A stretch of 64,000 bases of DNA from an uncultured Bifidobacteriaceae bacterium (GCA_964372085.1 CAYJPQ010000001.1:80435-144434); one strand, 5' to 3'; shown: positions 34,869 through 60,117, numbered from the stretch's first letter. A program made the numbers and translations. Notes: a model not told the origin generated them from the sequence alone.

Positions 34869-34941
34869 GGGCCCATAGCTCAGCGGTTAGAGCGGCCGGC
34901 TCATAATCGGTTGGTCCCTGGTTCGAATCCAGGTGGGCCCA
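34869..34941 (+). tRNA. tRNA with CAU anticodon, elongator type (tRNA-Met, or tRNA-Ile2 if lysidine-modified)
   Basis: Hand-folded cloverleaf: acceptor GGGCCCA/TGGGCCC, D arm GCTC-AGCGGTTA-GAGC, anticodon arm GCCGG-CTCATAA-TCGGT, variable TGGTC, T arm CCTGG-TTCGAAT-CCAGG, discriminator A. 73 nt with no encoded CCA. It is not an initiator: positions 1:72 are paired and the anticodon stem lacks the GGG/CCC pairs. Confidence 0.9.
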
Positions 34942-34947
34942 CTCTTT

Positions 34948-35038
34948 GGAAGTGAGAAGTCACAAGTGAGAAGTTGGAAGGAACCCATGCCACAGCGCTC
35001 GCCGCTTCTCACTTCTCACTTCTCACGTCTCACTTCAC
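34948..35038. repeat. imperfect inverted repeat whose arms are 7-nt tandem arrays (GTGAGAA / TTCTCAC)
   Basis: Left arm GGAAGTGAGAAGTCACAAGTGAGAAGTTGGAAGG (34948-34981). Right arm CTTCTCACTTCTCACTTCTCACGTCTCACTTCAC (35005-35038). About 21 of 25 positions are complementary. It begins 7 nt after the tRNA and ends 4 nt before the next ATG. Confidence 0.8.
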
Positions 35039-37120: not shown

Positions 37121-39613
37121 TTGGGGATCGGCCGGGTCGCCGCAATCGAGGCCCGTGCGATTGTGGTGGAGTTCCCGCGCTCGGGCGCCACGCTCCGGCT
37201 GGCCGCCGGCGCGGATGTCCTGCTCCCCGTCGACCTGAGCCCGGGACGGCCGGTCCGCATCACGGCCACCCAGCAAGACACGACGATCACCGCACGCCTG
37301 CCGGACGGCACCCTGCGGCTCGCGAACGGGCGCTCGGCATCTCCCCACGAGCTGTGGCCGCTGGAACTCGAAGGCGCGCTCCTCGAACGCCTCGCCGCCG
37401 GGGAACTCGACGACGTCGAGGACTTCATCACGCGGATGAACATTCTGCACCTCCTGGGCATTCGCGAGGCCGACGGCCTGGGGTCGTTCCTGGGCGGGCG
37501 CGTCCGGCTGTTCCCGCACCAGCTTCACGTGGCGGAGCGGGCCACGGCCACCGATCCCGTGCGCTGGCTGCTCGCCGACGAGGTGGGCCTCGGCAAGACC
37601 ATCGAGGCCTCGCTCATCCTCAACAGGCTCGTCCACGCCGGCAAGGTCACGCGCTGCCTGGTGGTGGCGCCGGAGACCCTCACCGTGCAGTGGCTCGGCG
37701 AGCTGTGGCGGAAGTATCACCAGGTGTTCACCCTGCTCGACTCGGAGCGCCTCGGCGACGTGGCGCACGACTTCGGTGAAGGCTTCAACCCCTTCGAACT
37801 CCACCGCCGGTCGGTCGTCTCGCTCGAGATGCTGATGGCCCGCCCGCACCTCACCGAACAGGCCGTGCAGGCCGGCATCGACCTGCTCGTGGTGGACGAG
37901 GCGCAACGGCTCCGGCGGCCGCCCGGCCACCCCGGCGATGCGGCCTGGCGCGCCGTCGCGCCCATCGCGGGCCTGGGTCGCCACGTGCTGCTCCTGAGCG
38001 CCACGCCGCTCGAAGACGACGCGCACGGGTTCTTCCGGCTGCTGCAGTTGCTGCGCCCGAACGAGTTTCCAGAAGACACGAGCTTCGAGGCACGGCTCGC
38101 CCAAGGCACCCCCCTGCCCGCCTGCACCAGCTCGACCCGCCGGGCCGACATCGGCGGCTTGCCGCCGCGGGTGGGGATTCCGATTGAACTCGGCGACCCC
38201 AGGAGCGGGACGCTGCGAGCCGCCGTCGAGAAGGCGGTGCGATCCACGGTGGCGCCGCATGCGGTCGCGGCACGCGAGAAGATCGATCGCGTCCGCCGTG
38301 CGCTCGCGTCAGGCGCCGCGCTCGGCGCGGTGCTGGGCCCGGACGACGCGGATCTGCGGAAGCAGGCCGAGGCCATGGACGCCAGGGATGCCCGCGTCCA
38401 GTGGCTGGCCTCGCAGGCGCCCGCGTGGCGCAAGGCGGGAGAGAAGACCCTGGTCTTCGTGGCGCATCGCGAGACCCTCGAGATGCTCCGCACGGCCTTG
38501 AGCCAGCGGGCCCAGTTGGCCACCGGCGTCTTTCACGAGGACCTCTCGTCGGCGCGCCGCGACACCGAGGTGGCGCGGTTTCGCGAGTCGGACGGTCCCA
38601 GCCTGCTCGTGTCCACCGAGTGCGGCGGCGAGGGCCGCAACTTCGAGTTCTGCCGCCGCCTGATCCTGTTCGACCTGCCCTGGAAGCCGTCGGTGGTGGA
38701 ACAGCGCATCGGGCGGCTCGACCGGATTGGCCGCCGCATTCCCGTGGAGGTGGTCTACTTTCGCCCGCCCGGCGGGATTGGCCGCGATGTCGTGAGGCTC
38801 TTCGAGGCGCTGGGCCTGTTCCGCGAGCCGCTCGCGGGGCTCGAGCCGCAGCTCGCCCCCGTGGAGGGCGCGCTCGATGAGATCGCGCTCGACCCGGACG
38901 CCTCGCTCTCGGAGGCGCGCTTCGAGGCGCTCGTGGCCGAGGCCCAGGCGGCGCACACCCGCATCCGCGAAGCGGCGTACCAGCAGCTCCATCGCGACCC
39001 GTATCGCGCGGACATGGCCGACGGCATCCTCGCGCGGGTGCCCAAGGAGCTCGACGCGCTCAACGAGGAGGTGGTCGTCACGGCCTCCATCGGCCTGGGG
39101 TTCACCATTGCGCATCCGCCGGGCCACCGGGTGTTCTCGATCGAGCTCGGCAGCGGCTCCCGCGTGGAGGGCTTGCCCGGCGTTCCGGCGGGCGCGAGCT
39201 ACGTCGGCACCTTCGATCGCGAGGAGGCCGTGGAAAACGAGTTCATCGACTTCTTCGCTTCTGGGCACCCGCTCGTGGAGGGCCTCTTCGCCCACTACGA
39301 GGAGGGCTCGCTTGGCCGGGCCGTGCGGTTCGAGATGGCCATCGGTGGGGACACCGGCGAGGGGCTCGTGGCCCTCTACAAGGACGGGCCGGCCTTCGAG
39401 GTGATCGCGCTCGACTCCACCGGCGCCCCACGGCTGGACTGGGCGGCCGCGATCTGCCGGCGGCCGATCCTGGCGCGCCCCGTCACCGGCAAGGCGGCCC
39501 AGGATCCCGACTGGCGGAGCATGGTCCGCCTCCTCGGCGCCCAACTCGACCCCACCCGCCGCCTGCACGCGCTCGCCGCCATCGTCGTCAGGCCTACCGC
39601 CACGGCTCTGTAG
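37121..39613 (+). CDS. rapA: RNA polymerase-associated SNF2 ATPase RapA (HepA)
   Basis: 830 aa from TTG 37121. Colinear with E. coli RapA as remembered: ELGIGRV Tudor-like N-terminus, LFPHQL, LLADEVGLGKTIEA, VVDEAQRL, LLLSATP, EGRNFEF...LFDLPW.PSVVEQRIGRLDRIG, FDREEAV. The true start is probably upstream of 37121 (see findings). Confidence 0.92.
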   Translation: MGIGRVAAIEARAIVVEFPRSGATLRLAAGADVLLPVDLSPGRPVRITATQQDTTITARLPDGTLRLANGRSASPHELWPLELEGALLERLAAGELDDVEDFITRMNILHLLGIREADGLGSFLGGRVRLFPHQLHVAERATATDPVRWLLADEVGLGKTIEASLILNRLVHAGKVTRCLVVAPETLTVQWLGELWRKYHQVFTLLDSERLGDVAHDFGEGFNPFELHRRSVVSLEMLMARPHLTEQAVQAGIDLLVVDEAQRLRRPPGHPGDAAWRAVAPIAGLGRHVLLLSATPLEDDAHGFFRLLQLLRPNEFPEDTSFEARLAQGTPLPACTSSTRRADIGGLPPRVGIPIELGDPRSGTLRAAVEKAVRSTVAPHAVAAREKIDRVRRALASGAALGAVLGPDDADLRKQAEAMDARDARVQWLASQAPAWRKAGEKTLVFVAHRETLEMLRTALSQRAQLATGVFHEDLSSARRDTEVARFRESDGPSLLVSTECGGEGRNFEFCRRLILFDLPWKPSVVEQRIGRLDRIGRRIPVEVVYFRPPGGIGRDVVRLFEALGLFREPLAGLEPQLAPVEGALDEIALDPDASLSEARFEALVAEAQAAHTRIREAAYQQLHRDPYRADMADGILARVPKELDALNEEVVVTASIGLGFTIAHPPGHRVFSIELGSGSRVEGLPGVPAGASYVGTFDREEAVENEFIDFFASGHPLVEGLFAHYEEGSLGRAVRFEMAIGGDTGEGLVALYKDGPAFEVIALDSTGAPRLDWAAAICRRPILARPVTGKAAQDPDWRSMVRLLGAQLDPTRRLHALAAIVVRPTATAL

Positions 39614-39766: not shown

Positions 39767-40360
39767 ATGAGCCGCATGGCCGGGCATCAGCACACGGACG
39801 AGGCCCGCGCGTCCACGCGCAAGCTCACGTACGTAGACTTCCTTGAGTTCCCCGACGATGGGCAGCGGCACGAGCTCATCGATGGGGAGCACTACGTGAC
39901 GCCGTCGCCGTTCCTGAGGCACCAGGAGCTGTCAAGGAGACTGACCGTCGAGCTGGAACTGCACCTCCGCCAGCATGGGGGTGGGCGGGTGTTTTATGCC
40001 CCGCTCGATTGTGTCTTCACCGACTTCGACGTCGTCGAGCCCGACATCCTGCTGGTGACAGCGGACCAGTTCCACATCCTCACCGAGGAGCACATCCAGG
40101 GCGCGCCGGCATTGGTGGTGGAAATCCTCTCCAAGGGCACGAGGAAGGTGGACGAGACGATCAAGCGCGACCTGTACGATAGGGTCGGTGTCCGCGAGTA
40201 TTGGCTGGTGGACCCGGCGGGACAGCGGATCACCGTCTACGCGCGAAGCGGCGACCGCCTCGGTCGCCAGCAGCACCTGTCCGCCGAACGACACGATACG
40301 CTGACTACGACCCTGCTACCAGGGTTTGCGTTGTCGCTCTCGGACTACTTCTTGCCGTAG
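39767..40360 (+). CDS. Uma2 family (DUF820) restriction-endonuclease-fold protein
   Basis: Internal ATG 39767 preceded by GGTAGG. 197 aa. Motifs VVEPDILLV, VVEILSKGTRKVDETIKRDLYDRVGVREYWLVDP. Confidence 0.85.
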   Translation: MSRMAGHQHTDEARASTRKLTYVDFLEFPDDGQRHELIDGEHYVTPSPFLRHQELSRRLTVELELHLRQHGGGRVFYAPLDCVFTDFDVVEPDILLVTADQFHILTEEHIQGAPALVVEILSKGTRKVDETIKRDLYDRVGVREYWLVDPAGQRITVYARSGDRLGRQQHLSAERHDTLTTTLLPGFALSLSDYFLP

Positions 40361-41381: not shown

Positions 41382-41414
41382 GTGATATCACATCTTTTCA
41401 TGAAGTGATATCAT
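41382..41414 (+). promoter_or_regulatory. two copies of a 10-bp palindrome (GTGATATCAC / GTGATATCAT); candidate operator of the RHH-MNT gene
   Basis: Copies at 41382-41391 and 41405-41414, 23 nt centre to centre. The second copy overlaps the ATG at 41413. This is an AT-rich island in a GC-rich context. Confidence 0.5.
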
Positions 41415-41997
41415 GCAGGCAATGGTTGCCGCCAGCCGCCGGACGCCGCCCGTGGCCCGGGTGCTGCTGCGCCTTCCGGCCGACCTCCACCGGTCGCTGA
41501 CCCGGGCCGCCGAGGCGGATGGGCTCTCGTTCAACGAGTTTTGCGTACGGCGTTTGCGCACGCCCGCCCAGCCGCAGCAGATGTCCGCGGCCCGGACCGC
41601 GGTGGTGCACCGCGCCCAGGCCGCCTTTGGCCCGCGCCTGCTCGGTGTGTTGGCGCTCGGCTCGTGGGCCCGCGGCGAGGCTGGGGCCGCCTCCGACATC
41701 GACGCGCTCATCGTGATCGATCCGAACACGCCGCTCACGCGCGACCTCTACCGAGCCTGGGATCGGGATCCCCTGGCCGTGGAGGGCCGCGTGGTCGACG
41801 CGCACTTCGCGCACCCGTCCCCGGCGGGAACCACGCCCGGTGCTGTGTGGTGCGAGGCCGCGGTGGACGGCCTGTTATGGTACGACCGGGACGGGCAGAT
41901 TCAGCAGCGCCTGGGGGAGATCCGCCGGGCGATCGCGGAGCGCCGCGTGGTGCGGAGCTTCGCGCACGGACAACCGTATTGGAAGGGAGCGGCGTGA
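41413..41997 (+). CDS. ribbon-helix-helix (HicB/Arc-like) domain fused to a minimal nucleotidyltransferase (MNT) domain
   Basis: 194 aa. N-terminal VLLRLPADLHRSLTRAAEADGLSFNEFCVRRL (RHH-type) followed by GSWARGEAGAASDIDALIV (GS-x9-D-x-D NTase motif). Confidence 0.85.
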   Translation: MQAMVAASRRTPPVARVLLRLPADLHRSLTRAAEADGLSFNEFCVRRLRTPAQPQQMSAARTAVVHRAQAAFGPRLLGVLALGSWARGEAGAASDIDALIVIDPNTPLTRDLYRAWDRDPLAVEGRVVDAHFAHPSPAGTTPGAVWCEAAVDGLLWYDRDGQIQQRLGEIRRAIAERRVVRSFAHGQPYWKGAA

Positions 41998-42521
41998 TGC
42001 ACAACCGGGAGTTGGCCGCCGACCACCTGCGCCGGGCCGGCGCCCGCCTTCGCGCGCTCGACGTGCTGCACGAGGCCGGCAGCTGGGCCGACGTCGTCCG
42101 CGAGTCGCAGGAAATTGTGGAGCTCACGTTGAAGGGACTGCTGCGCGCCTTTGGGGTGGACCCGCCGCGGATCCACGACGTGGCCGACGTGCTCATTGCC
42201 GAGCGCGAGCGCCTCCCGAAGGACTTGTGGCCACACCTCGATCGATTGGCCACCGTCTCGAGGACCCTGCGGCGCGATCGCGAGCTGGCGTTCTACGGCG
42301 CCGAAGACCTGACGCCCTCGTCGTTTTATCGCGAGGCCGACGCGGTGAGCGCGCGCGACAGCGCGCGCGACGTCGTGGGGGGGGGGGGGGGGCGCGGGGG
42401 CCCCCCCGCGGGGGGGGCGCCGCCGCCCCCCCCCCCCCCCCCCGCCGGCGGGTCACCGGGCGCGGGCTCTCGCCCGAGGTGCCCGCGCGGCGCGCCTCCG
42501 CCTCGTCACTGCACGCAGTAG
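41997..42521 (+). CDS. HEPN domain protein; genuine sequence ends about 42376 and the rest is read-through of a G/C low-complexity tract
   Basis: ATG 41997 overlaps the MNT stop (TGATG). The first 127 aa are HEPN-like (LRRDRELAFYG). From 42377 the frame reads GGGGGRGGPPAGGAPPPPPPPP..., so the natural C-terminus and stop are missing. Confidence 0.7.
   Translation: MHNRELAADHLRRAGARLRALDVLHEAGSWADVVRESQEIVELTLKGLLRAFGVDPPRIHDVADVLIAERERLPKDLWPHLDRLATVSRTLRRDRELAFYGAEDLTPSSFYREADAVSARDSARDVVGGGGGRGGPPAGGAPPPPPPPPAGGSPGAGSRPRCPRGAPPPRHCTQ
42377..42443. repeat. composite G/C homopolymer tract (junction 1)
   Basis: Counted by hand: G16-CGC-G5-C7-GC-G8-CGCCGCCG-C18. It shares GGGGGCGCGGGGG+C-run and G8-9-CGCC+C-run modules, in the same order and orientation, with 52352-52424. 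Confidence 0.9.
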
Positions 42522-43033
42522 AGCCCGCTGGCGTTGCCGACCTCTTCGCACGACCAGAACGTGGGGCAGTCGGTGAAGTCCATGCAGGTCTTCGAGCAGT
42601 AGCCGAACTGGGTGTCCGGCGCGAACAGGCAGGCGTCGTACATGCAATCGGCGTTGTCCTGACACTGGCTCCCGAGATCGTCGCCTCCGCCGCCGGTCGT
42701 CGTGGACGTGTTGCCTCCCGACGACGTCGAGCCGCCGGTGGTGCTGCCGCCGCACGAGCCCGGCGTCGGCGAGCAGGCCGAAGGATCGAAGTCGTTGAAG
42801 CACTGGTCGACGGCGCCCTGCGACGGGCAGGTGAAGTGCTCGTCGTTGAGGCAGCACTCGAAGCTCGACGAGCCGGAGCCGCTGGTGGAGCCGTTGCCCG
42901 AGCCGCTGCTCGAGCCGTTGCCCGAGCCGTTCGTGTTGTCGCCGCCCGCGCCGCCGCCGCCGCTCTCGCCGCCGCAGCCGATCACCACCGCGCAGATCCC
43001 GATCCCGACCAAGCCAACGAAACGCGTGAACAT
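42506..43033 (-). CDS. Cys-rich lipoprotein (uncharacterised)
   Basis: Internal ATG 43033 (MFTRFVGLVGIGICAVVIGCGG, lipobox VIGC), 175 aa. Gly/Ser/Asn linker followed by a Cys-rich module CQDNADCMYDAC...YCSKTCMDFTDCP...C. Confidence 0.7.
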   Translation of the reverse strand: MFTRFVGLVGIGICAVVIGCGGESGGGGAGGDNTNGSGNGSSSGSGNGSTSGSGSSSFECCLNDEHFTCPSQGAVDQCFNDFDPSACSPTPGSCGGSTTGGSTSSGGNTSTTTGGGGDDLGSQCQDNADCMYDACLFAPDTQFGYCSKTCMDFTDCPTFWSCEEVGNASGLYCVQ

Positions 43034-43208
43034 CGCTCTCTCCTCGTGGAAATGGAGGCACCCGCGCACCGCGCGCGCGTCCCTCGCTGGACCTCGCCGC
43101 GCGGCGCCCGTCGGGGGCTCTCCGCTCGGCTCATCGGTACGACGCGCCGGGGCGGGCGCTGTAACACGAATTTTTTGGTGAGCCGGAAACGTCCGCGCGT
43201 TCGCGTGC

Positions 43209-44039
43209 TTACCCGCGCGGCGTGTCCGCCTCGGGGGCGAGGAGCCGATCGAGGCTGACGTCGAGCTGGCTGAGGCAGAGGCGCGTCACGCTGGCGAGCT
43301 CGGCCTCGTCGAGCTGGAGGCGATCGCGGAGGAGGGCGCGGGTGCCGTCGAGCAGCTTCTGCCGCGTCTGCCCCAGCCAGCGCGCCACGCTCACCCGGTG
43401 GACGCCGTAGATCCCGGCCACCTCGTCGGCGGTGAGGCCGTCGGTGTAGACCAGGCGGAGCACGTTGCGATCCTTCGGGGAGAGACCGGTGAGCGCGTCG
43501 CGGAACGCCTGGCTGAACGGCTCGGCGTAGCGCGCGCGCACCTGGGCGAGCTCGGGATCGTCGTCCGCCGCGAGCTCGCCGAGCGCCGAGTCGCCGGCGT
43601 GGTCGTCGCGCGCCTGCTTGCGGTACTCGCTCAGCGCCTCGTGCACCGTGAGCGCCCTCAGCCAGGCGCGGATCGGCCCCTTGCCCGTGTAGGTCACGAT
43701 CCTCGGCTCGGCGCCCTCGGCGGCGACGAAGAGCTTGTGGCGGATGCGCTGGAGGATCTCGTCGTTCGCCGCGCCGCGGAGCCGCAGGCGCGCGAGCGCC
43801 CTCGGCGCCTCGAGCGCGAGCTCGGCCTCGAACGCCGCGAGCGCGGCCGGATCGCCCTCGGCGCAGCAGGCGGCGAGGTAGAGATCGGGCAGGTGGAGCG
43901 CGCCGGTCGCGGCGCCCGCCTCGAGGTGCGACGCCAGCCGTCGCGCGAAGCGCCCGTCGCCCCCGGCGAGGCCGGGCCGGGAGGCCCGGGCCGAGGCGAG
44001 CGCCTGGGCGATCATGCCCTGGGGACCGACATCGACCAC
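43209..44039 (-). CDS. ECF-type sigma-70 family factor with extended N-terminus (Myxococcales-type subfamily)
   Basis: 276 aa (GTG 44039; alternative ATG 44015). Region 2-like PIRAWLRALTVHEAL and region 4 LVYTDGLTADEVAGIYGVHRVSVARWL. The N-terminal LHLPDLYLAACCAEGDPAALAAFE is typical of the myxobacterial ECF group I recall as TIGR03001-like. Confidence 0.82.
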   Translation of the reverse strand: MVDVGPQGMIAQALASARASRPGLAGGDGRFARRLASHLEAGAATGALHLPDLYLAACCAEGDPAALAAFEAELALEAPRALARLRLRGAANDEILQRIRHKLFVAAEGAEPRIVTYTGKGPIRAWLRALTVHEALSEYRKQARDDHAGDSALGELAADDDPELAQVRARYAEPFSQAFRDALTGLSPKDRNVLRLVYTDGLTADEVAGIYGVHRVSVARWLGQTRQKLLDGTRALLRDRLQLDEAELASVTRLCLSQLDVSLDRLLAPEADTPRG

Positions 44040-44076
44040 GCGCTCACGCTAGCAACAAACGACTATCCTGGCCCGG

Positions 44077-45144
<1,068 letters not shown>

Positions 45145-45157
45145 CGGCGCGCCGCGG

Positions 45158-46168
45158 TCAGGGCGCGCGGACCACCCAGCCGAGGCCGCCGCCGTCGAGC
45201 GCGGGCCGCTCCGGATCCGGGCGCGTCGCGGCGTACGTGGTGACGGCGGCGCCCGCCACGACGACGGCCGCCGCGCCCCAGAACCACCAGCGCGTGAGCA
45301 GGCTGGGCTGGTGCGGTTTGAGCGGCGCCGAGAGATCGACGCGCTGCCCCGCCTTCAGCGTCGTCGAGACCTCGTAGGGATCGAAGCCCGGCTTGCGGAC
45401 GAGGACCCGGTGGGCGCCGGCGCCGCGCTCCACGGACACCGGCGCGATGCCGACGTCGAGCCCATCGACGGCGACGACGGCGTCGCGCTCGTTCGAGGAG
45501 ACGCGCAGCATGGCAGGGAGCCGCTCGACCGCGAGGCGCAGCGCTCGCCGCTCGCCGGGGCGGACCGTCTCGCGGTGGAGCGCGTCGGCGAAGCCCTCGC
45601 GGGCGATGAGGAACACGTGCGGCCCGGGATCGAGCACGAGCCGGAACACCGGCGCCGGCGGAGGCTTGCCCGGCCCCGCCGGGAGCGTTCCCGCGAGCAG
45701 CGTCGGCCGATCGCCGCCCTCGGTCGGCTCGAGCGGCTGGCCGTCGACGGTGATCGCCGCGTCGCCGGGCTCGAGCGTCACCTCGAGCGTGGCCACGATC
45801 CGGTCGATCTCGGCGATGAACCGCTCGGTGTCGGTCACCGTCGCCTCGGGGAGATCGGCGTCGGGCTTGCGCTCGGCGAGCGCGCGGCCGAACGTGCGGC
45901 GCGCGCGGACGTACTGGCCGAGCGCGCGCTCGCACACCCCCATGTTGTACGTGGTCCAGGCGTGCGGCCGGCGGCGAGCGGAGCGCTCGAAGGCGGCGAG
46001 CGCCGCGCCCCACTGCGCGTCCTTCGCGAGCTCGGCGCCGCGGGCGAAGTCGGCGCGGGCCTCGGCCACGCCGTCGGCGTCCTGCGCCGTCGCCGGCGGC
46101 GCGGCGGAGGCGAGCGCGACGGCGAGCGCCATCGCCGCGAAGGACCGCTCGACACGTGCGGGAGCCAC
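45158..46168 (-). CDS. PEGA domain protein with N-terminal TPR-like region and C-terminal TM anchor
   Basis: 336 aa from GTG 46168 (alternative ATG 46132), with signal peptide. PEGA-like modules (ITVDGQP..., VAVDGLDVGIAPV...VLVRKPGFDPYE) and the TM segment WWFWGAAAVVVAGAAV. Confidence 0.75.
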   Translation of the reverse strand: MAPARVERSFAAMALAVALASAAPPATAQDADGVAEARADFARGAELAKDAQWGAALAAFERSARRRPHAWTTYNMGVCERALGQYVRARRTFGRALAERKPDADLPEATVTDTERFIAEIDRIVATLEVTLEPGDAAITVDGQPLEPTEGGDRPTLLAGTLPAGPGKPPPAPVFRLVLDPGPHVFLIAREGFADALHRETVRPGERRALRLAVERLPAMLRVSSNERDAVVAVDGLDVGIAPVSVERGAGAHRVLVRKPGFDPYEVSTTLKAGQRVDLSAPLKPHQPSLLTRWWFWGAAAVVVAGAAVTTYAATRPDPERPALDGGGLGWVVRAP

Positions 46169-46182
46169 GCTCCGTGTGTCCC

Positions 46183-47544
46183 TCAGAACGGGACCTTTGT
46201 CAGCAGCTTTGTCGGGGCCGCGTCGGAGCTCGCCGGAGGCGCCGCGGTCGCATTCGCCGACGCCGCGCTCGCCGTGGGCGCCGGCGCCGGCGGCGTCTTC
46301 GCGGGCGGCTGGGGCGGGATCGCGCGATCGGCGCGCGCGGTCGACGCCGGCGGCACCGTGGGCGCACCCGACGGCGTCGAGGGACTGGCGGAGGTCGACG
46401 AGGCTGCGTTCGCGGCGGGCTCCCGCGCGGAGACGACCGCGCTCGGGGCGGGCTCCGCCGGCTCGGGGGGCGCCGTCGCGACCACGGCCGACGTGGCCGC
46501 GTCCGGCGACGGAGACGCCGGCTTCCCGAACGCGAGCACCCCGAGCGCGACGGCCGCGACCACGCCCGCGGCGGCGACGGCGACACGCGAGCGCGGCCGG
46601 GGGCTCCCCGCCGCGCCGCCGGTGGTCTCGCCGCTCGGGTTCGGCGTCGGCGCGGCCGAGAGGAATCGCGCCGGCGCGGCCCGGCCCACCCGCGCGCCGG
46701 CCGCGGCGCTCGGCGCTCCGGCGAGCGCCTCGAGGACCTCGCGCGCAGTGCCCGGCCGATCCGCGGGATCGATCGAGAGCAGCTCGCCGACGAGCCGCGC
46801 CACCGGCTCGGGCGTCGTGGGCACGCGCGCGGCGAGCGGCTCCAGCTTGCCGTTGGTCAAGAGGCGCAGCACCTGCCCGAGGTTCTCGGCCTGCGTCGGC
46901 GGCGCGCCGGCCAGGCACTCGTAGAGGATGACCCCGACGGCCCAGAGGTCGGCGCGCGCGTCGATGGGATCGCCGAACGCCTGCTCGGGCGCCATGTAGT
47001 AGGGCGTGCCGATCATCGCGCCCGTCGCGGTGAGCGCGCCGGACGCGCCGGGGACGCCCTCGGGGGCGACCACCTTGGCGACGCCGAAGTCGAGGATCTT
47101 CACCTCGCCGCCGTCGAGGAGGAAGAGGTTGTCCGGCTTGAGATCGCGGTGGACGATCCCGGCGGCATGCGCGGCCTCGAGCCCGCCGAGCACGGCGCGC
47201 ACGATGCGCAGCGCCTCGTCCAGGGGAAGCACCCGCTCGCGCGCGAGGCGCGCGCGCAGCGACTCGCCCTCGAGCAGGTCCATCACCAGGACCGGCGATC
47301 CGTCGTCGGCCTCGAGCACGTCGTGGACCGCGAGGATGCTCGGGTGGAGGGCGGCGCAGGCGGCCCGCGCCTCGCGCAGCATCCGCCGGCGGGCGCTCGC
47401 GTCGTCGCCGGTCGCGTGGAGGAGCTTGAGGGCGAAGGCCTTGCCCGTGACCGTGTGCCGCGCCGCCCAGACGCTGCCCATCCCGCCCTTGCCGAGAAGG
47501 CGCTCGAGGCGGTAGCGCTGGGCGATGACGTCTCCCGGCCCCAT
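46183..47544 (-). CDS. Ser/Thr protein kinase with Ala/Pro-rich C-terminal region
   Basis: 453 aa. GKGGMGSVW, ALK, HRDLKPDN, DFG, APE, and a low-complexity tail. Confidence 0.88.
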   Translation of the reverse strand: MGPGDVIAQRYRLERLLGKGGMGSVWAARHTVTGKAFALKLLHATGDDASARRRMLREARAACAALHPSILAVHDVLEADDGSPVLVMDLLEGESLRARLARERVLPLDEALRIVRAVLGGLEAAHAAGIVHRDLKPDNLFLLDGGEVKILDFGVAKVVAPEGVPGASGALTATGAMIGTPYYMAPEQAFGDPIDARADLWAVGVILYECLAGAPPTQAENLGQVLRLLTNGKLEPLAARVPTTPEPVARLVGELLSIDPADRPGTAREVLEALAGAPSAAAGARVGRAAPARFLSAAPTPNPSGETTGGAAGSPRPRSRVAVAAAGVVAAVALGVLAFGKPASPSPDAATSAVVATAPPEPAEPAPSAVVSAREPAANAASSTSASPSTPSGAPTVPPASTARADRAIPPQPPAKTPPAPAPTASAASANATAAPPASSDAAPTKLLTKVPF

Positions 47545-47588
47545 GGGCCCGGTGTAGCACCGGGCGGCGCGGGAAGGGATGACCTCAC

Positions 47589-47612
47589 CCCCTCTCCCTC
47601 ACGGGAGAGGGG
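47589..47612 (-). terminator. perfect 10-bp GC-rich hairpin downstream of uvrD
   Basis: CCCCTCTCCC-TCAC-GGGAGAGGGG, 25 nt past the reverse-strand uvrD stop. No U-tract. Confidence 0.4.
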
Positions 47613-47636
47613 AAGGAGCGGAGAGAGCGGGGTTCG

Positions 47637-50009
47637 TCAGAGGCGCAGGAACCGGAGCTTGATCCGCTTCACGCCCCAGCCGGGGAACTGGACCGAGGCG
47701 GTCGGGTCGTCGCCGCCGTCGACGCTCACGAGCTTGCCGGTGCCGAACTTCTCGTGGCTGACGCGGGCGCCGGGGCGCAGCGGGCCGTGGCCGCTTTCAT
47801 CCACGCCGGGGTCGCGCTCGACGTAGCGCTCGCCCGGAGCGTGGGACGGCTCCTCGCGGGCACGCGACGAGGCGGGCGCGTCGTAGCGCCGCTCTTCGAT
47901 GCGGGATCGGGGGCCGCCGTCGTCGGGGCCCGCGTGACCGCCGGACCGCGCCTGCGGGTGCGTCCAGGCGTCGCGGAGCCGGTCGAAGCTCGGGAGCCGA
48001 TCGACGCGGCGCTCGCCCACGCCCATCTGGCGCGCGGTGTCGGTCGCCATCGGCCGCACCGACGTCTTCGGGAGATCGCGGAGGAAGCGGCTGGGCACGC
48101 CGTAGCGGGTGGTGCCGAAGATCATCCGCCGCTGGGCGTGGGTGACGAAGAGGCGCTCGCGGGCGCGCGTGACGGCGACGTAGGCGAGGCGACGCTCCTC
48201 CTCGAGCTCCTCGGCTTCCTTCGGGTCGAGCCCGCGGAAGGGGAAGATCTCCTCCTCCATCCCGGTGAGGAACACGGCGTGGAACTCGAGCCCCTTGGCC
48301 GCGTGCACCGTCATCATCGCGACCTTGGGCGCGTCGGCGAGCTGATCGACGTCGCTCGAGAGCGTGACGCGCTCGAGATAGCCGTCGAGCGTCCCCACCT
48401 CGCCCGCCGCCGCGGCCTCCTCCTCGTACTCGGCGATGGAGCCGAGGAGCTCGTCGAGGTTCTGCAGTCGCGCCTCGCTCTCGGCGCTGTCGTCCTCGGC
48501 GAGCCAGCTCGCGTAGCCGGTCCGCTCCAGCACCTCCTCGGCGAGCACGTGCGGCGAGGCCGTCCGCGCCTCGCCGATGAGCCCCTGGAGCAGATCGCGG
48601 AAGGCGAGCAGGCTCTTCTTGGCCGCGGTCCCGACCGCCCCGCTCTGGCATGCCGGCTCGATGGCGTCGTAGAGCGACGTCTTGCGCTCGTCGGCGACCG
48701 CCGTCACGCGCGCCATCGTGGTGTCGCCGATCTTTCGGGAGGGCACGTTGACGATGCGGGCGAGGTCGACGTCGCTCCTCGGGTTGGAGATGACGCGGAG
48801 GTACGAGAGCAGGTCCTTGATCTCGGCGCGCTCGAAGAAGCGGGTGCCCCCGATGATCTGGTAAGGGATCCGCGCCGCGCGCATCACCTCCTCGAGCACG
48901 CGCGACTGGGCGTGGACGCGGTAGAAGACCGCGATGTCGCGCGGCGAGATCCCGCGGTCGATGAGCTCCTTCAGCCGCTCGACCACCCACGCCGCCTCGT
49001 CGCGCTCGCTCTCGGCGGCGACGACGTGGATGGGCTCGCCGTCGTTGCGCGCCGTCCACAGCTCCTTCGGCTCGCGATCGCGGGCGGGGCGGATGACGCC
49101 GAGGCCGCCCTTCACGATGTGCCCGGTCGAGCGGTAGTTCTGCTCGAGCTTGATCACCGTCGCTTCCGGGAAGTCGCGCCGGAAGTTGCGGATGTTGCGC
49201 ACGTCGGCGCCGCGCCAGCGGTAGATGCTCTGGTCGTCGTCGCCGACCACGCAGAGGTTCTTCCGCTCGCCGGCGAAGGCGCGGACGAGGCGGTACTGGA
49301 CGAGGTTCACGTCCTGGAACTCGTCGACGAGCACGTAGCGGAAGCGCCGGCGGAGCTCCTCCCCCGCGGGGATCGTCGGGTCCTCGGCGATGCGGAGGAC
49401 GGCGAGCAAGAGGTCCTCGAAGTCGACCGCGTTCGCGTCGCGGAGGTGGCGCTGGTACGCCTCGAAGCAGCGCCCGATGGCGTCGTCGAGGTAGCCCTCG
49501 GCGACGAACTGCTCCGGGCCCCGCGCCTCCTGCTTCTCCTTGTGGATGCGCGCCAGGATCTGCCGGGGCGGGTAGCGCTTGTCGTCGAGGTCGAGCTCCT
49601 TGAGGACGCGGTTCATGACGGCGCGCTGGTCGGCGTCGTCGTAGATGACGAAGCTGCGCTCGAGCCCGGCCGCGTCGTGGTGGCGGCGCAGCAGCCGGGC
49701 GCACACCGCGTGGAAGGTGCCGACCCAGAGGTCCTTGGCGACCTCGACGCCGAGCAGGCCCTCGAGGCGGCGCTTCATCTCGCCCGCCGCCTTGTTGGTG
49801 AACGTCACCGCGAGCACCCGGTAGGGCGGGACGCGGTGGCCCGCGACCAGGTTGGCGATGCGGTAGGTGATGACGCGGGTCTTCCCGCTCCCGGCGCCCG
49901 CGAACACCAAGAGGGGTCCGTCGACGTGGGCGACGGCGCTCGCCTGCGGCTCGTTGAGCTCCGGCGGCCCCTCGGGCGGCTCGGGCGAGGAGAGCTCGGC
50001 GTCGATCAT
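47637..50009 (-). CDS. uvrD: ATP-dependent DNA helicase UvrD/PcrA
   Basis: Start set at ATG 50009 (MIDAELSS...), 790 aa. Walker A GAGSGKTRV, motif II VDEFQD, and a C-terminal Tudor-like GARVSHEKFGTGKLV. The track start at 50183 would overlap the divergent gene. Confidence 0.93.
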   Translation of the reverse strand: MIDAELSSPEPPEGPPELNEPQASAVAHVDGPLLVFAGAGSGKTRVITYRIANLVAGHRVPPYRVLAVTFTNKAAGEMKRRLEGLLGVEVAKDLWVGTFHAVCARLLRRHHDAAGLERSFVIYDDADQRAVMNRVLKELDLDDKRYPPRQILARIHKEKQEARGPEQFVAEGYLDDAIGRCFEAYQRHLRDANAVDFEDLLLAVLRIAEDPTIPAGEELRRRFRYVLVDEFQDVNLVQYRLVRAFAGERKNLCVVGDDDQSIYRWRGADVRNIRNFRRDFPEATVIKLEQNYRSTGHIVKGGLGVIRPARDREPKELWTARNDGEPIHVVAAESERDEAAWVVERLKELIDRGISPRDIAVFYRVHAQSRVLEEVMRAARIPYQIIGGTRFFERAEIKDLLSYLRVISNPRSDVDLARIVNVPSRKIGDTTMARVTAVADERKTSLYDAIEPACQSGAVGTAAKKSLLAFRDLLQGLIGEARTASPHVLAEEVLERTGYASWLAEDDSAESEARLQNLDELLGSIAEYEEEAAAAGEVGTLDGYLERVTLSSDVDQLADAPKVAMMTVHAAKGLEFHAVFLTGMEEEIFPFRGLDPKEAEELEEERRLAYVAVTRARERLFVTHAQRRMIFGTTRYGVPSRFLRDLPKTSVRPMATDTARQMGVGERRVDRLPSFDRLRDAWTHPQARSGGHAGPDDGGPRSRIEERRYDAPASSRAREEPSHAPGERYVERDPGVDESGHGPLRPGARVSHEKFGTGKLVSVDGGDDPTASVQFPGWGVKRIKLRFLRL

Positions 50010-50166
50010 CCCCTGCTCGGTTAGCACGGCGGGGCGCGCTTGGGGAGCGGCGGAGGGCGCACCGCCGGACGGCGCGACGCGCGCATGATCGCCGTGGGAT
50101 CCGGACAAACTGTGGAGAGTTGTGCTCTTGACGCGGGCGCGCAGGCCCATCACGGGAGAGGGCGAC

Positions 50167-52284
50167 ATGCGCATCGCGCTCACCTACAACCTGAAGCTCA
50201 GCGGCTCCGCCGAAGAGGCGGAGTTCGACAGCCCGGAGACCATCGACGCGCTCGCCGCAGCGCTCTCCCGGGCCGGACACGAGGTCGAGCGCATCGAGGT
50301 CTCGGGGCCTCCCTCGCGCGTGGTCGCGCGCCTCGAGGCGCTCGCGCCCGACCTCATCTTCAACACCGCCGAGGGCCACAAGGGCAAGACGCGCGAGGCG
50401 TTCTACCCCGCGCTCTTCGACGAGCTCGGGATCCCGTACACCGGCTCGGACGCGTACGCGCTCTGCGTGACGCTCGACAAGCTCCTCACCAAGCGCATCC
50501 TCTCGAGCTACGGCGTCCCCACGCCCCGCGCGCGGCTGGTCACGCGCGCCACCATCGAGAGCGGCGCGCTCGACGACATGATCTTCCCGGCCATCGTCAA
50601 GCCCAACTTCGAGGGCTCGTCCAAGGGCATCAGCGAGTCGAGCGTGGTCGAGGACGCCTACGAGCTCTCCTCGCGCGTCGACCGCCAGCTCGATCGCTAC
50701 GAGGCGGGCCTCCTCGTCGAGCGCTACGTGCCCGGGACCGACGTGTCCTGCTCCTTCGTCGACGGCATCGAGCCCGACGGCGTCCTCGAGCCGATCGAGT
50801 ACGTGATCGATCCCCAGTTCGCCGGCGCGTACAACGTCTACGACTACAACCTCAAGAACATCAAGCCCGAGCACGTCACCCTGCGCCCCGCCGAGTTCCC
50901 GCGCGCGGTGATCGAGCGCATCCAGGCGCTCACCCGCCGCATCGTCCGCGCCCTCGACCTCAAGGACCACGCCCGCTGCGAGTTCCGGGTCACCCCCGGC
51001 TCGGCGAGCCGGGGCCCCGAGGTGCAGTTCCTCGAGGTCGACGCCCTCCCCAGCCTCGAGAACGGCCTGGGCACGTTCATCTCGGCGAAGCGGCGCGGCG
51101 TCGACTACGACGGCGTGGTCCGCGCCATCGTCAAGAGCGCCTGCAAGCGCCGCGGCATCCCGCTCGGCGAGCCGGGCGCGACCAAGAAGCGCCGCGCCGC
51201 CGCCGCGCTCCGGGTGGGCCTCACCTTCAACATGAAGCGCATCGACACGTCGGGCGGCGACGACGCCGAGGCCGAGTTCGACTCCCCGAAGACGATCCAG
51301 GCGATCAGCCGCGCCATCGAGAGCTACGGCCACACCGTGGTGATGCTCGAGGCGAACGCCGACCTGCCCCACGCGCTCACCGCCGCCGCGCCCGACGTCG
51401 TCTTCAACATCGCCGAGGGCCACCACGGCCGCGGCCGCGAGGCGCACGTGCCGGCGCTCTGCGAGCTCCTCGGCATCCCCTACAGCGGCTCGGACGCGAC
51501 GACGCTCTCGCTCTGCCTCGACAAGGGCCTCACCAAGCAGATCCTCCGCGCCGCCGGGATCCAGACGCCCGAGTGGCAGATGCTCACCACCGGCCGCGAG
51601 AAGCTCCGCGCCTTCCGCTACCCTGTCATCGTCAAGCCGAACGCCGAGGGCACCTCGAAGGGCATCACCTCGGCCTCGGTGGTCGAGGACGAGGCCGCCG
51701 CGCGCGCCGCGGCCAAGGCGCTCGTCGACAAGTACGGCCAGCCCGCCCTCGTCGAGGAGTACGTCGACGGGCGCGAGCTCACCGTGGGCCTCCTCGGCGA
51801 GCGCCGGCCCAAGGTGCTCCCGCCGATGGAGGTCGTCTTCGTCGATCCCTCGGCCCACCCCGTCTACGGCTTCGAGGAGAAGCAGGCCGACACCACCAAG
51901 GTGCGCTTCGAGTGCCCGGCGCAGCTCTCGCCGGCCGAGCTCAAGCGAGTGGAGAAGGTCGTCCGCGACACCTTCGCCGCGCTCGACTGCCGCGACGTGG
52001 CGCGCATCGATCTCCGCCTCGCCAAGGACGGCACGGTCTACGTCATCGAGGTCAACCCGCTCCCCGGCCTCACCCCGGACTTCAGCGATCTCTGCGTCAT
52101 CGCCAAGGTCGTGGGGATGGACCACCGCACGCTCATCGGCGAGATCCTCGCGCCGTCGATCAAGCGCCATCGCGAGGCCAAGGCCGCCGCTGCTCCCACG
52201 AACGGCGACGCGCCGCCGCCCGGCGCGCGGAGCTCGGATCGCCCCCCGACCGTGCAGGCCGTGAAGCTCGCGAACGGCCACTGA
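50167..52284 (+). CDS. tandem double D-Ala-D-Ala-ligase-like ATP-grasp protein
   Basis: Internal ATG 50167 (MRIALTYNLK...), 705 aa. Two colinear Ddl-like halves, each beginning (I/V)(A/G)LT(Y/F)N(L/M)K...AEFDSP(E/K)TI...FN(T/I)AEGH.G..REA..PAL.E.LGIPY(T/S)GSD. Confidence 0.85.
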   Translation: MRIALTYNLKLSGSAEEAEFDSPETIDALAAALSRAGHEVERIEVSGPPSRVVARLEALAPDLIFNTAEGHKGKTREAFYPALFDELGIPYTGSDAYALCVTLDKLLTKRILSSYGVPTPRARLVTRATIESGALDDMIFPAIVKPNFEGSSKGISESSVVEDAYELSSRVDRQLDRYEAGLLVERYVPGTDVSCSFVDGIEPDGVLEPIEYVIDPQFAGAYNVYDYNLKNIKPEHVTLRPAEFPRAVIERIQALTRRIVRALDLKDHARCEFRVTPGSASRGPEVQFLEVDALPSLENGLGTFISAKRRGVDYDGVVRAIVKSACKRRGIPLGEPGATKKRRAAAALRVGLTFNMKRIDTSGGDDAEAEFDSPKTIQAISRAIESYGHTVVMLEANADLPHALTAAAPDVVFNIAEGHHGRGREAHVPALCELLGIPYSGSDATTLSLCLDKGLTKQILRAAGIQTPEWQMLTTGREKLRAFRYPVIVKPNAEGTSKGITSASVVEDEAAARAAAKALVDKYGQPALVEEYVDGRELTVGLLGERRPKVLPPMEVVFVDPSAHPVYGFEEKQADTTKVRFECPAQLSPAELKRVEKVVRDTFAALDCRDVARIDLRLAKDGTVYVIEVNPLPGLTPDFSDLCVIAKVVGMDHRTLIGEILAPSIKRHREAKAAAAPTNGDAPPPGARSSDRPPTVQAVKLANGH

Positions 52285-52346
52285 AGAGGAGTCGGACAAT
52301 CGTCCGACCCACGCCGCTCGAGGCCCGAGGTCCGACGCCTCTTCAG
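52281..52346 (+). terminator. 17-bp (one mismatch) stem-loop starting on the stop codon of the ATP-grasp gene
   Basis: CTGAAGAGGAGTCGGAC (52281-52297) pairs with GTCCGACGCCTCTTCAG (52330-52346). An alternative inner hairpin is GTCGGAC-AATC-GTCCGAC (52291-52308). The G/C tract begins 5 nt downstream. Confidence 0.45.
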
Positions 52347-52351
52347 TCCCC

Positions 52352-52424
52352 GGGGGCGCGGGGGGGCCCCCCCCCCCCCCGCCCCCCCCCCGCGGGCGGG
52401 GGGGGGGGCGCCCCCCCCCCCCCC
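52352..52424. repeat. composite G/C homopolymer tract (junction 2)
   Basis: Counted by hand: G5-CGC-G7-C14-G-C10-GC-G3-C-G9-CGC-C16. It shares modules, order and orientation with 42377-42443. Confidence 0.9.
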
Positions 52425-52555
52425 CCTCGCGACCGCCGCATGGATCAGACCAACACGCCTCGCGCAGCGCGGACGGATGCGGTCCGTCGCGCGCGAAGCG
52501 CACACCCCGCCCGGCGCGCGGCTTGCGACGGTTCGATCCGTCGGGGGTCTCGCGC

Positions 52556-52951
52556 ATGGGGGTGTTCGCCAGCAGAAACAGGAAGCGCGCCGCGGCGGGC
52601 GCGGCGCTCCTCGTCGCCGCCGCGGCCGCCGGCTCGTGCGCGCTCGAGCGCCGGCCGTACCTGCCCGATCCGCGGCCCGGCGTGCCGGCCTACTGGGAGT
52701 CCAGCCTCCCGCCGAGCGCGACCGAGGCGGTGGACGAAGACGGTGGCGCGTCCGACGCCGCGATGGACGGCGCCGCGGGCGAGAAGCGCGACGCGGCGCC
52801 CTCTCCGCCGCCGCCCGAGAAGTACCTCTGGGAGGACCCGCCCGCGCCGACGGTGCCGGTGATCGAGCGGCCGCCGCCGCCCGGCCCGCCCGATTCGCAG
52901 ATCCCGCTGCGCGACGACGTGCAGCACGACGTCGAGCCTCTCAAACATTAG
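52556..52951 (+). CDS. small Pro-rich lipoprotein (hypothetical)
   Basis: ATG 52556 (MGVFASRNRKRAAAGAALLVAAAAAGSC, lipobox-like), 131 aa. Very high third-position GC in this frame. No recognisable domain. Confidence 0.5.
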   Translation: MGVFASRNRKRAAAGAALLVAAAAAGSCALERRPYLPDPRPGVPAYWESSLPPSATEAVDEDGGASDAAMDGAAGEKRDAAPSPPPPEKYLWEDPPAPTVPVIERPPPPGPPDSQIPLRDDVQHDVEPLKH

Positions 52952-52970
52952 CGCCGCTCGCCTGCAACCG

Positions 52971-53043
52971 CGGGCAATTGACCCGACCGAAGCGAAGCGG
53001 AGGGCGGGTGTCCGGCCGGCGCGAGCCGGCCGGCAATTGCCCG
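52971..53043. terminator. nested palindromes between convergent genes (candidate bidirectional terminator)
   Basis: Outer pair CGGGCAATTG (52971-52980) and CAATTGCCCG (53034-53043). Inner hairpin CCGGCCGG-CGCGAG-CCGGCCGG (53012-53033). A further hairpin GGGGGC-GGA-GCCCCC lies at 53052-53066. Confidence 0.4.
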
Positions 53044-53077
53044 GGGGGTTTGGGGGCGGAGCCCCCATGTTGGGAGA

Positions 53078-54643
53078 TCAGTCGAGCACGGGCAGCGGGT
53101 TCGCCGAGTCGGGGAACATCTCGTGCGCCGCCATCTGGCGGGCGTCGAGGCGCGCCGCGAGCTTGGCCCGGCCCTTCGAGGTGGTCAGCTGCGCGGTCGC
53201 CTTCTCGAAGCGCAGCTTCGCCTCGGCGAAGTACGCGGCCCGGGGCTTCGCCAGCGAGGCGTCGGGGATGGCGCCGTCGAGGAGCGCGGCCAGGTAGGCC
53301 GAGCGCGGCGCCGACATCGCCGGGAGCGCGCCGGCCGCGTGCTTGGCAAGGAGCAGCTTGCGCAGGTGCGCGTCGACGTCGGCCGGCGCCGCCGGCAGGC
53401 CCTCCACCGCCTCGGCGTGGAGCGCGCAGCGCGCGCTCGAGAAGATGTCGTTCTCGTCGTCGACGAGGCGGATCGCCGTGATCGTCCGCGCCGTGAGGTA
53501 GCCCGTCTTCTGCAAGAAGGCCTCGATGCGCTTGTCCATCTCGGAGCGCACCGGCAGGAGCTCGAACGGCTCGGAGGGGTAGGCCGTCGGCTTCACGAAC
53601 CCTGCGCCCGACACCGCCGCCGGATCGACGAAGAGCTCGAGGGGCACGGTGTCCGACGAGCTCATGAAGCCGAGCTCGGTCTGGCAGAAGACCGACCGGA
53701 GCATCTGCGGCATCCCGCCCGGCTGCGTGCCGTCGAGCATCATCTGTCCGAAGCCCGAGCCGGCGGCGTCGCTCGCGCCGTACACCCAGGTCCGGATCGC
53801 GGCGCGCATGGTCTGCTCGAGATCGTTGGCGAGCGAGGAGCGCGAGTGCTCGCCGTGGAGCGCCGCCGCCTCGGTCACGATCGACGCCGTCTCGCCCGTC
53901 AGGCTCGACTCCTCGGGCAGCATCTTGTGGGTGCTGACCCAGTTGGTCCACGGCTCGGTCATCTCGTTCATGAGCGGGCCGCCGGCGACGTGGCAGTTGA
54001 AGCACCGGCGGTCCTCGCTGACGCGCTTGGTCGCGGCCTTGCCCGGGAGCTTCTCGAGCTCGAGCACCCGATCGGTGGCGTCGCGCATGATGCGCGTCAC
54101 GGTGCCGGGCTTGCCGCTGCCGTTCGACTCGAACACGTAGAAGTTGTAGAGGCCGGTCTTGGTGTCGAGGGCCATCACCTCGACCGGCTCGAGCACCATC
54201 GGATCCCCCTCGGCCGCGTGGGGCGCGTCGGGGCTCGAGACGAGCGCGACCATCAGGCTGAACGACTGGCGCACCGACTCGGGGTCCTGCCGGTCGGTGT
54301 TGCAGCCGGTGATCACGGCGCGCGGGAGCACCTGGCTCGTCGACTCCTGCTCGCCGGTGGCGCGGCTCGAGGGCTCCTCGACGACGAAGATCTCCTTCGA
54401 GTCCTGGCGGGCGCAGGCGCGCCCGATGCCGAAGAGCTTCTCCACCTCGGGGTAGGTGCCCGGGACCTTGTCCGGGCTCTTCTTGAGCACGTCGGCGACG
54501 CGGTCGTTGCCCCAGAGCGTCACCTTCTCGCGGACGTCCTGCTCGTCGCCCACGCCGGCGTCGTCGCCGCCGCAGCCGACCGCGGCCGCGGCGGACGCCG
54601 CCACGGCGAGCACGAGCCCCGCGAGACGCCGGGCCGTGCTCAC
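53078..54643 (-). CDS. lipoprotein with a single CxxCH motif (uncharacterised)
   Basis: GTG 54643 (VSTARRLAGLVLAVAASAAAAVGCGG, lipobox AVGC), 521 aa. One c-type-haem-like CFNCH. The start overlaps the stop of the upstream gene (GTGA). Confidence 0.75.
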   Translation of the reverse strand: MSTARRLAGLVLAVAASAAAAVGCGGDDAGVGDEQDVREKVTLWGNDRVADVLKKSPDKVPGTYPEVEKLFGIGRACARQDSKEIFVVEEPSSRATGEQESTSQVLPRAVITGCNTDRQDPESVRQSFSLMVALVSSPDAPHAAEGDPMVLEPVEVMALDTKTGLYNFYVFESNGSGKPGTVTRIMRDATDRVLELEKLPGKAATKRVSEDRRCFNCHVAGGPLMNEMTEPWTNWVSTHKMLPEESSLTGETASIVTEAAALHGEHSRSSLANDLEQTMRAAIRTWVYGASDAAGSGFGQMMLDGTQPGGMPQMLRSVFCQTELGFMSSSDTVPLELFVDPAAVSGAGFVKPTAYPSEPFELLPVRSEMDKRIEAFLQKTGYLTARTITAIRLVDDENDIFSSARCALHAEAVEGLPAAPADVDAHLRKLLLAKHAAGALPAMSAPRSAYLAALLDGAIPDASLAKPRAAYFAEAKLRFEKATAQLTTSKGRAKLAARLDARQMAAHEMFPDSANPLPVLD

Positions 54644-57202: not shown

Positions 57203-57203
57203 A

Positions 57204-58004: not shown

Positions 58005-58050
58005 TCGCGATCGGCGAGCCGCGGCGACCGCGCGCTCCTCAGGAGGCCAC

Positions 58051-59474: not shown

Positions 59475-59478
59475 GCCG

Positions 59479-59967: not shown

Positions 59968-60117
59968 GGGCCCGGAACGTACCGCCAAGCGCCGAAAGGG
60001 TCGAGTGGGTCACCGGCCGTCGCCGATCCGAGCGCGCGGCGGGCGACGATCCGCACGAAAGGCAGGCGGTCGGTCGAACGTTCGACATTCACGATCGCTC
60101 ATCTAGACTGCGCCCCG

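Follow-up and report, generated by a model that had tools for sequence, protein, structure and literature searches.

The window analysed here is a 64,000-nucleotide stretch of DNA. The region of interest within it (41997–43033) contains an open reading frame (ORF) for a HEPN-domain protein on the plus strand, a run of G and C homopolymers, and a gene for a 175-aa protein on the minus strand. The partner of the HEPN gene, an MNT-type nucleotidyltransferase gene (41413–41997, plus strand) with NTP_transf_2 and HicB-like matches (Pfam PF01909 and PF05534), is the final intact gene in the left part of the window, which we refer to as block A (1–42378). Block A is authentic chromosomal sequence, and ends within the HEPN gene at ...CGACGTCGTGG. 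The authentic portion of that gene spans 41997–42378 (~127 codons, plus strand) and includes a Pfam HEPN match at residues 8–126. Its true final ~14 codons (...ATVRPHVATGQPG*) are absent from the window. There is no stop codon ahead of the homopolymer run, and the ORF continues to position 42521 with a Gly/Pro-rich tail in its translation (GGGGGRGGPPAGGAPPPPPPPP...). This extension, which yields a 174-aa protein, is an artefact; the true 3ʹ end of the gene, GCGACGGTGCGTCCGCACGTCGCCACCGGCCAGCCGGGATGA, is present in loci L001, L002, L005 and L100 from independent assemblies described below.

The homopolymer run, tract 1, was located by a homopolymer scan at 42377–42443 (~65 bases) and includes runs of G16, C7, G8 and C18; the stretch attributable to neither block, which forms the breakpoint, is 42379–42442. 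The run is almost perfectly palindromic around 42408/42409, with gapless arms (42377–42408 and 42409–42440) that are 88% complementary. To its right lies block B (42443–52358), also authentic chromosomal sequence, which begins at GCCGGCGGGTCACC... in intergenic sequence on the 3ʹ side of the 175-aa gene. That gene (42506–43033, minus strand) is the first in block B. It encodes a Cys-, Gly- and Ser-rich protein that is predicted to be secreted or a lipoprotein, with a signal peptide ending in ...VIGC; Pfam and NCBIfam searches matched it to no known family. Farther right are a gene for a 268-aa ECF sigma factor of Myxococcales family 1 (43209–44015, minus strand), which matches TIGR03001 with 213.9 bits against a curated cut-off of 154.6, and a called gene of 705 aa around 50122–52284. 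A second G/C stretch of the same kind, tract 2 (52359–52426), was evident from the homopolymer scan and from the sequence, and lies between block B and block C (52427–64000). Tract 2 had been overlooked in a preliminary description of this DNA. Genes in block C encode a matrixin-type metalloprotease, a protein with five myxo_disulf_rpt matches (TIGR02232), and BacA/UppP (BacA by Pfam), and the block also contains a partial match to NF041905.

Sequence composition changes sharply at tract 1. On PC1 of the tetranucleotide profile, ten 4-kb chunks of 1–42376 scored between −2.9 and +1.1, and the four chunks to the right of tract 1 scored between +3.3 and +5.6. The split between left and right persists at matched GC, and blocks B and C are alike. 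For genes called by a GC-frame log-odds score, GC3 was 0.920 ± 0.032 on the left (n = 30) and 0.960 ± 0.018 on the right (n = 17; Mann-Whitney p = 9e-6); with a measured value of 0.92, the left side does not have the moderate GC3 attributed to it in the preliminary description. The step in GC3 is small, and the bigger shift at tract 1 is in the preference for C-ending versus G-ending codons. From left to right, the frequency of CTC among Leu codons goes from 0.44 to 0.77, and that of GTC among Val codons from 0.32 to 0.57. The synonymous codon distance between block A and blocks B/C was 0.703, and none of 2000 permutations of the gene labels gave a distance as large (0.207 ± 0.049). For comparison, the distance between blocks B and C was 0.206, and that between the two halves of block A was 0.298. 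Tandem arrays of heptamers occur at 108–128, 8378–8398, 34949–34969 and 35003–35036; all four are in block A, as previously described. A switch in PC1, GC3 and codon choice at the breakpoint is the pattern expected of a chimera between genomes. The tetranucleotide and GC3 comparison proposed in the preliminary description places the break at tract 1, and PC1, the codon distance, the heptamer arrays and the marker genes described below all bear out its claim of an abrupt shift in gene content, repeats and codon bias at 42.4 kb.

Marker genes indicate that the two flanks of tract 1 come from different organisms. We scanned GTDB species genomes with one fused query, consisting of DnaG from block A and UvrD from block B. 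The DnaG half was 76–80% identical to sequences from Vicinamibacterales/Acidobacteriota MAGs, the UvrD half was 53–57% identical to sequences from Polyangiaceae/Polyangiales/Myxococcales MAGs, and no locus in the GTDB species-genome scan matched both halves. Seven block A genes matched Acidobacteriota loci only, and three block B genes matched Myxococcota loci only, in a set of loci that is biased by having been chosen via DnaG and UvrD. Protein families give the same picture. On the left, identical proteins have Pfam matches to GT2, Peptidase_S15/PepX_C (CocE/NonD type), DUF5916, RpoD and DnaG; these confirm the rpoD, GT2, CocE/NonD and DUF5916 genes from which an Acidobacteriota-like protein set had been proposed for this side. 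On the right, the TIGR03001 ECF sigma factor, the five TIGR02232 myxo_disulf_rpt matches, two Pkinase genes and a PEGA protein agree with the Myxococcota hallmarks that had been listed, namely the sigma factor, cysteine-rich repeats, kinases and PEGA protein. The curated lineage families TIGR03001 and TIGR02232 were found on the right side only. One further proposed hallmark, a MYXO-CTERM-like tail on the protein encoded at 56282–57202, can be recognized by eye (GGCSVAG...LLFLGVAAVARRRKRE) but falls below every curated MYXO-CTERM model. The same protein is a partial match to a myxosortase-dependent metalloprotease family (121 bits, with a cut-off of 250). Based on these matches, we assign block A to a chromosome of Vicinamibacterales (Acidobacteriota) and block B to one of Polyangia (Myxococcota), with block C assigned to a further stretch of the same Polyangia chromosome. 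Per-gene taxonomy, which had been suggested as a check, thus points to a different phylum on each side.

Independent assemblies reveal the native neighbours of each flank. Exact-protein look-ups led to 45 independently assembled SPAdes contigs from one ENA study (ERZ136929xx–ERZ136931xx), and both populations were found in the contigs of this study at 99.3–99.98% nucleotide identity. Of the 23 contigs with an identical MNT protein, 22 lead, beyond the HEPN gene, to a cbb3 oxidase cluster (SoxA-type cytochrome c, FixO and COX1), and the remaining one has a third context consisting of HhH-GPD, KsgA, RNase J and FtsK; these tallies, and those for the other flank, depend on the grouping of similar contig places by their neighbouring genes. 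All 22 contigs with an identical 175-aa protein either have LigD_Prim-Pol/ArsR/MIP/LMWPc/rSAM-SPASM genes at this position or stop at the tract. The join between A and B is absent from all 45 contigs carrying either junction gene. The native flanks that are missing from the window resemble the block to which they belong: PC1 is −3.2/−2.7 for the cbb3 flank, on the A side, and +4.0/+2.6 for the LigD flank, on the B side. Hence, each flank has its own reproducible neighbour and the two differ, as expected for a chimera.

Alignments of the window to these loci end at the same place. By blastn, A-type loci (L001–L007) are 99.8–99.9% identical to the window only up to positions 42393–42424, and B-type loci (L008–L014) are 99.3–99.95% identical only from positions 42375–42420 onward. 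None of 36 fetched loci aligned across tract 1. Elsewhere, the window is collinear with independent contigs. The offset between block A and a 227-kb contig (NODE_68), derived from coordinates, is 112867 at both 8404 and 40381, and an 88-kb contig (NODE_229; L105) follows blocks B and C in the same order to the end of the window, at 99.9% identity, save for the length of tract 2. Nine independent loci hold both flanks of tract 2 in the same order, and blocks B and C are therefore truly adjacent. The B/C “island” is ordinary chromosome, with genes for UvrD, BacA and kinases, and in its own genome it extends left into the LigD/ars genes. One contig (L007/L104) wrongly connects the A site to a different A-like region (PC1 of −2.3/−2.4).

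What are the G/C tracts? Elsewhere in the ENA study, the A site reads ...CGACGTCGTGG, followed by junk (often N10) and then CGACGTCGTGGCGACGGTG...GGATGA, and the B site reads ...GCCGGCGGGTCACCGGGCGCGGG, followed by junk and then GCCGGCGGGTCACCGGGCGCGGGCTC.... The anchors around the junk are duplicated (CGACGTCGTGG in genome A and GCCGGCGGGTCACCGGGCGCGGG in genome B), which indicates that the true sequences are continuous and tract-free. Moreover, the content and length of the tracts vary in each assembly of strains that are 99.9% identical, with frequent N10 scaffold gaps. The differences between assemblies, together with the duplicated anchors, indicate that the tracts are non-templated. There are stray T and A runs within the junk, miscalls in the flanking bases rise toward the tract, and one study contig begins/ends in G43. 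Related Vicinamibacterales and Polyangia MAG loci that stem from other studies, 568 kb in total, contain no comparable tract. We conclude that tracts 1 and 2 are non-templated G/C sequencing junk: different assemblies of a single strain disagree on them, and the underlying sequence runs on uninterrupted once they are removed. We considered, and dropped, the possibility that the tracts are bidirectional terminator hairpins between convergent genes, since tract content varies by assembly and the anchors are duplicated. Similarly, we dropped the idea that tract 2 is a second chimeric breakpoint, given the nine loci with both flanks and the composition and codon usage shared by blocks B and C. Tract 2 lies in a true intergenic region and is harmless for the order of B and C.

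The abundances of the two flanks are also uncoupled. The DIFFERENTIAL coverage data are SPAdes contig values taken from record names, rather than from read mapping. Across seven samples, the ratio of A to B coverage was 0.30, 0.34, 0.49, 0.49, 0.69, 2.25 and 2.94. By comparison, pairs of contigs from the same sample and the same population had ratios of 1.03 (A/A) and 0.93 (B/C). For a single replicon, the ratio should be constant, whereas the observed A:B range is 9.8-fold. The differential coverage check that had been put forward in advance therefore shows that the flanks do not covary across samples, as would be expected if they belong to different genomes.

Together, these observations indicate that the window is almost certainly an inter-phylum chimeric contig, in which Vicinamibacterales sequence (block A, 1–42378) has been joined to Polyangia sequence (blocks B/C, 42443–64000) from the same community. 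We would expect read pairs spanning the junction to be lacking in the source sample. The preliminary description had favored a chimeric contig over recent inter-phylum transfer, and composition, taxonomy, coverage, native neighbours and the junk at the breakpoint all argue in the same direction. If the contig were correct, a Vicinamibacterales lineage would have taken up 21.6 kb or more of Polyangia chromosome, inserted at the HEPN 3ʹ end. Such a genuine and very recent transfer would account for the presence of both blocks on one contig and for the sharp switch in composition and taxonomy, as for foreign DNA that has not ameliorated. Toxin-antitoxin loci such as HEPN/MNT are, moreover, often located in variable regions. 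However, the junction of a genomic island should be seen wherever the recipient is assembled, and here it is not reproduced in any of the 36 loci or in any contig with a junction gene, even though both populations occur at 99.9% identity in many samples. Transfer also fails to explain a junction made of non-templated junk, the 9.8-fold decoupling of A and B coverage, or an “island” that is ordinary chromosome and continues leftward to LigD/ars in its own genome. Lastly, the boundary within the window (the far boundary is outside it) has no hallmarks of integration: the neighbours are the MNT, HEPN, Cys-rich protein and ECF sigma factor genes, with no integrase, no tRNA and no meaningful direct repeats, and the only tRNA found, a tRNA-Met (34869–34942), is 7.4 kb away. 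We therefore regard transfer, including one confined to the source sample, as very improbable.

Two other explanations would retain a single organism or a true sequence. If pieces of one genome had been assembled in the wrong order, there would be no cross-phylum contamination, and the A site that is misjoined to an A-like region in L007/L104 does show that junk-mediated joins occur within a genome. This is difficult to reconcile with marker genes from different phyla, with lineage families that are confined to the right and heptamer arrays that are confined to the left, with differences in codon usage and tetranucleotides far beyond the variation within blocks, or with a coverage ratio that moves between 0.30 and 2.94 across samples; we consider a misjoin within one genome to have next to no chance of being correct. 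Alternatively, the G/C tracts could be real elements, such as hypervariable homopolymer or G-quadruplex/i-motif loci, with the window representing one true allele. Consistent with this, the tracts recur at fixed sites in every sample and in two unrelated genomes, and the sites adjoin GC-rich hairpins. On the other hand, the duplicated anchors mean that the sequence is continuous without the junk; the N10 gaps, stray T/A runs, rising errors in the flanks and G43 contig ends point to degraded reads; and the 568 kb of relatives from other studies lack any such tract. Nor would real tracts change the fact that each flank of tract 1 has another native partner. It is thus highly unlikely that the window is a true allele.

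How might a chimeric contig with this structure have arisen? We propose that reads entering very GC-rich, hairpin-laden sites decay into non-templated runs of G and C. In genome A, decay would set in at the 3ʹ terminus of the HEPN gene; in genome B, it would do so in the intergenic spacer that separates the LigD primase-polymerase gene from the 175-aa gene. Junk tails would then lengthen the tips of contigs. In a de Bruijn graph, where a k-mer and its reverse complement form a single node, G-rich tails on the plus strand of A and the minus strand of B would converge in shared low-complexity nodes. An assembler path from A through G-junk and C-junk to B would yield the palindromic tract 1, and a palindrome is what one would expect to see after head-to-head fusion of two G-rich junk tips. 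At tract 2, the assembler would have happened to connect the right partners.

The cause of the read decay and the exact step in the graph are inferred to be as outlined here, with GC-rich inverted repeats, and possibly two-colour Illumina chemistry, as the candidate source of the decay. Runs consisting only of G and C would fit a partial loss of signal in two-colour chemistry. The reconstructed true A and B sites form back-to-back GC-rich hairpins in predicted structures (−47.9 and −43.0 kcal/mol), with z-scores of −2.6 and −1.9; these modest scores are suggestive of hairpins as the trigger of decay. The decay sites are non-random, recurring at fixed positions in two unrelated high-GC genomes and in every sample. 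We attach little credence to the broader idea that this recurrence reflects something physical in the DNA itself (extremely stable stacked GC hairpins or a base modification, for example) that obstructs sequencing-by-synthesis, and that such sites would systematically seed chimeras between genomes when high-GC metagenomes are assembled.

The break at 42.4 kb was introduced during assembly and is not a biological feature, and this has consequences beyond the window. Both blocks have proteins listed on a single 182,617-bp NCBI contig, so a deposited genome very probably includes tens of kilobases of DNA that belong to a different phylum. A chimera in a deposited genome would distort taxonomy, estimates of completeness and contamination, pangenome analyses and the inference of horizontal transfer. 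An ORF that runs across such a tract is fictitious; one example is the 174-aa “HEPN” product that ends in a Gly/Pro tail. A palindromic scar of G/C homopolymers is simple to screen for; in this window, one scar marks a true chimera (tract 1) and the other a gap-fill that is harmless for gene order yet corrupts genes (tract 2).

Comparison with known systems helps to place these observations. As with a horizontally acquired island, more than 20 kb of sequence departs abruptly from its neighbour in codon usage, composition and best-hit taxonomy. Unlike an acquired island, the right part of the window has no hallmarks of integration, its junction is not reproducible, its abundance is decoupled from that of the left part, and it continues into its own chromosome. 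The window also resembles known chimeric contigs: two unrelated genomes share a contig, composition, taxonomy and coverage all switch at the break, and each side has a different partner in independent assemblies. Known chimeras usually arise at sequences shared between genomes, such as rRNA genes, IS elements and conserved genes, whereas the shared element at the join described here is low-complexity G/C junk of non-templated origin, and the join leaves a visible palindromic scar.

Two types of sequencing error are also relevant. Poly-G tails are removed by read trimmers. Two-colour Illumina chemistry is known to produce poly-G artefacts (PMC13465854). The tracts resemble this artefact in having non-templated G runs at the ends of reads or contigs (C on the other strand), as in the study contig that ends in G43. 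They differ from textbook poly-G in that G and C are mixed, with occasional T/A, and in that their position is internal, at fixed, very GC-rich sites common to all samples, and not at the ends of short inserts. Sequence-specific Illumina errors, said to have been described by Nakamura et al. in 2011 in Nucleic Acids Res, are reportedly set off by inverted repeats and GGC motifs. The reported effect is a rise in miscalls, and not a full collapse to homopolymer junk. Nonetheless, decay in both cases is site-specific and directional, and the true A and B sites carry stacked GC-rich inverted repeats. By analogy, errors of the Nakamura type may be linked to the junk in this window.

The second G/C homopolymer tract (52359-52426), which separates the two Polyangia (Myxococcota) segments, blocks B and C, consists of runs of G7, C14, C10, G11 and C16. 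It is intergenic, lying between an ATP-grasp gene that ends at 52284 and a gene for a 131-aa protein that starts at 52556, and its length varies among assemblies, the largest difference being about 110 bp. In contrast to tract 1, the homopolymer junk at the breakpoint between blocks A and B, the flanks of tract 2 are genuinely adjacent in nine independent loci.

In L009, a block B-type contig (ERZ13692950 NODE_819), the region around locus positions ~17036-17153 shows two changes: a 200-bp stretch corresponding to 50900-51100 of the window is present in duplicate, and the ATP-grasp gene contains an extra junk tract. Together these lengthen the ATP-grasp ORF from 705 aa to 775 aa, one more local assembly fault in this data set. 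Within block A, the Vicinamibacterales (Acidobacteriota) segment, we compared window positions ~6584-13267 with loci L113, L117 and L114-L116. The MutS2/Smr gene, which encodes 799 aa in the window, is split in some assemblies, with a 351-aa ORF on the opposite strand; the gene for a 583-aa amidohydrolase is split in others, with an additional 153-aa ORF. These breaks may represent strain variation or more local assembly faults.

What lies at the end of block A, where the HEPN gene runs into tract 1? At 41413-42378, just downstream of genes for an SNF2 helicase (37121-39613) and a Uma2-family endonuclease (39767-40360), an MNT-type nucleotidyltransferase gene with a HicB-like N-terminal stretch and the HEPN gene overlap by one base (TGATG) and look like a putative HEPN/MNT toxin-antitoxin pair. 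In the contig ERZ13692960 NODE_473 (L007/L104), G/C junk at locus positions ~6612-6756 links the 3ʹ end of the HEPN gene to a third context, which includes genes for an HhH-GPD glycosylase, Zincin_1, KsgA, RNase J and FtsK. This context has an A-like tetranucleotide signature and heptamer-like repeats, and the join is probably a second misjoin at this site, within one genome.

A single NCBI contig of 182,617 bp lists proteins from block A (RpoD) together with proteins from blocks B and C. Hence, a deposited genome seems to include the chimeric contig. The kinase variant encoded at 46183-47544 was found only on this contig. The 175-aa protein of block B (42506-43033, minus strand) is conserved in the Polyangia population, where at least 22 contigs encode it. 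Its signal peptide resembles that of a lipoprotein, and the sequence following the signal-peptide cysteine contains 12 more cysteines. The protein also has long Gly/Ser/Thr linkers and matches no family in Pfam or NCBIfam.

Intergenic tandem heptamer arrays characterise block A (108-128, 8378-8398, 17555-17590, 34949-34969 and 35003-35036) and its Vicinamibacterales/Acidobacteriota relatives: in the comparison loci (L015-L094) there are 91 in 504 kb from the relatives, and none in 64 kb of Polyangia loci. The unit sequence varies from locus to locus. Many arrays lie directly upstream of dnaG, and an array is frequently followed by its reverse complement. The window's inverted pair, flanked by tRNA-Met (34869-34942) and a gene starting at 35040, has counterparts in the comparison loci L041 (CAAAGGG x4 / CCTTTTG x4) and L048 (AAGTCTG x4 / CAGACTT x4).
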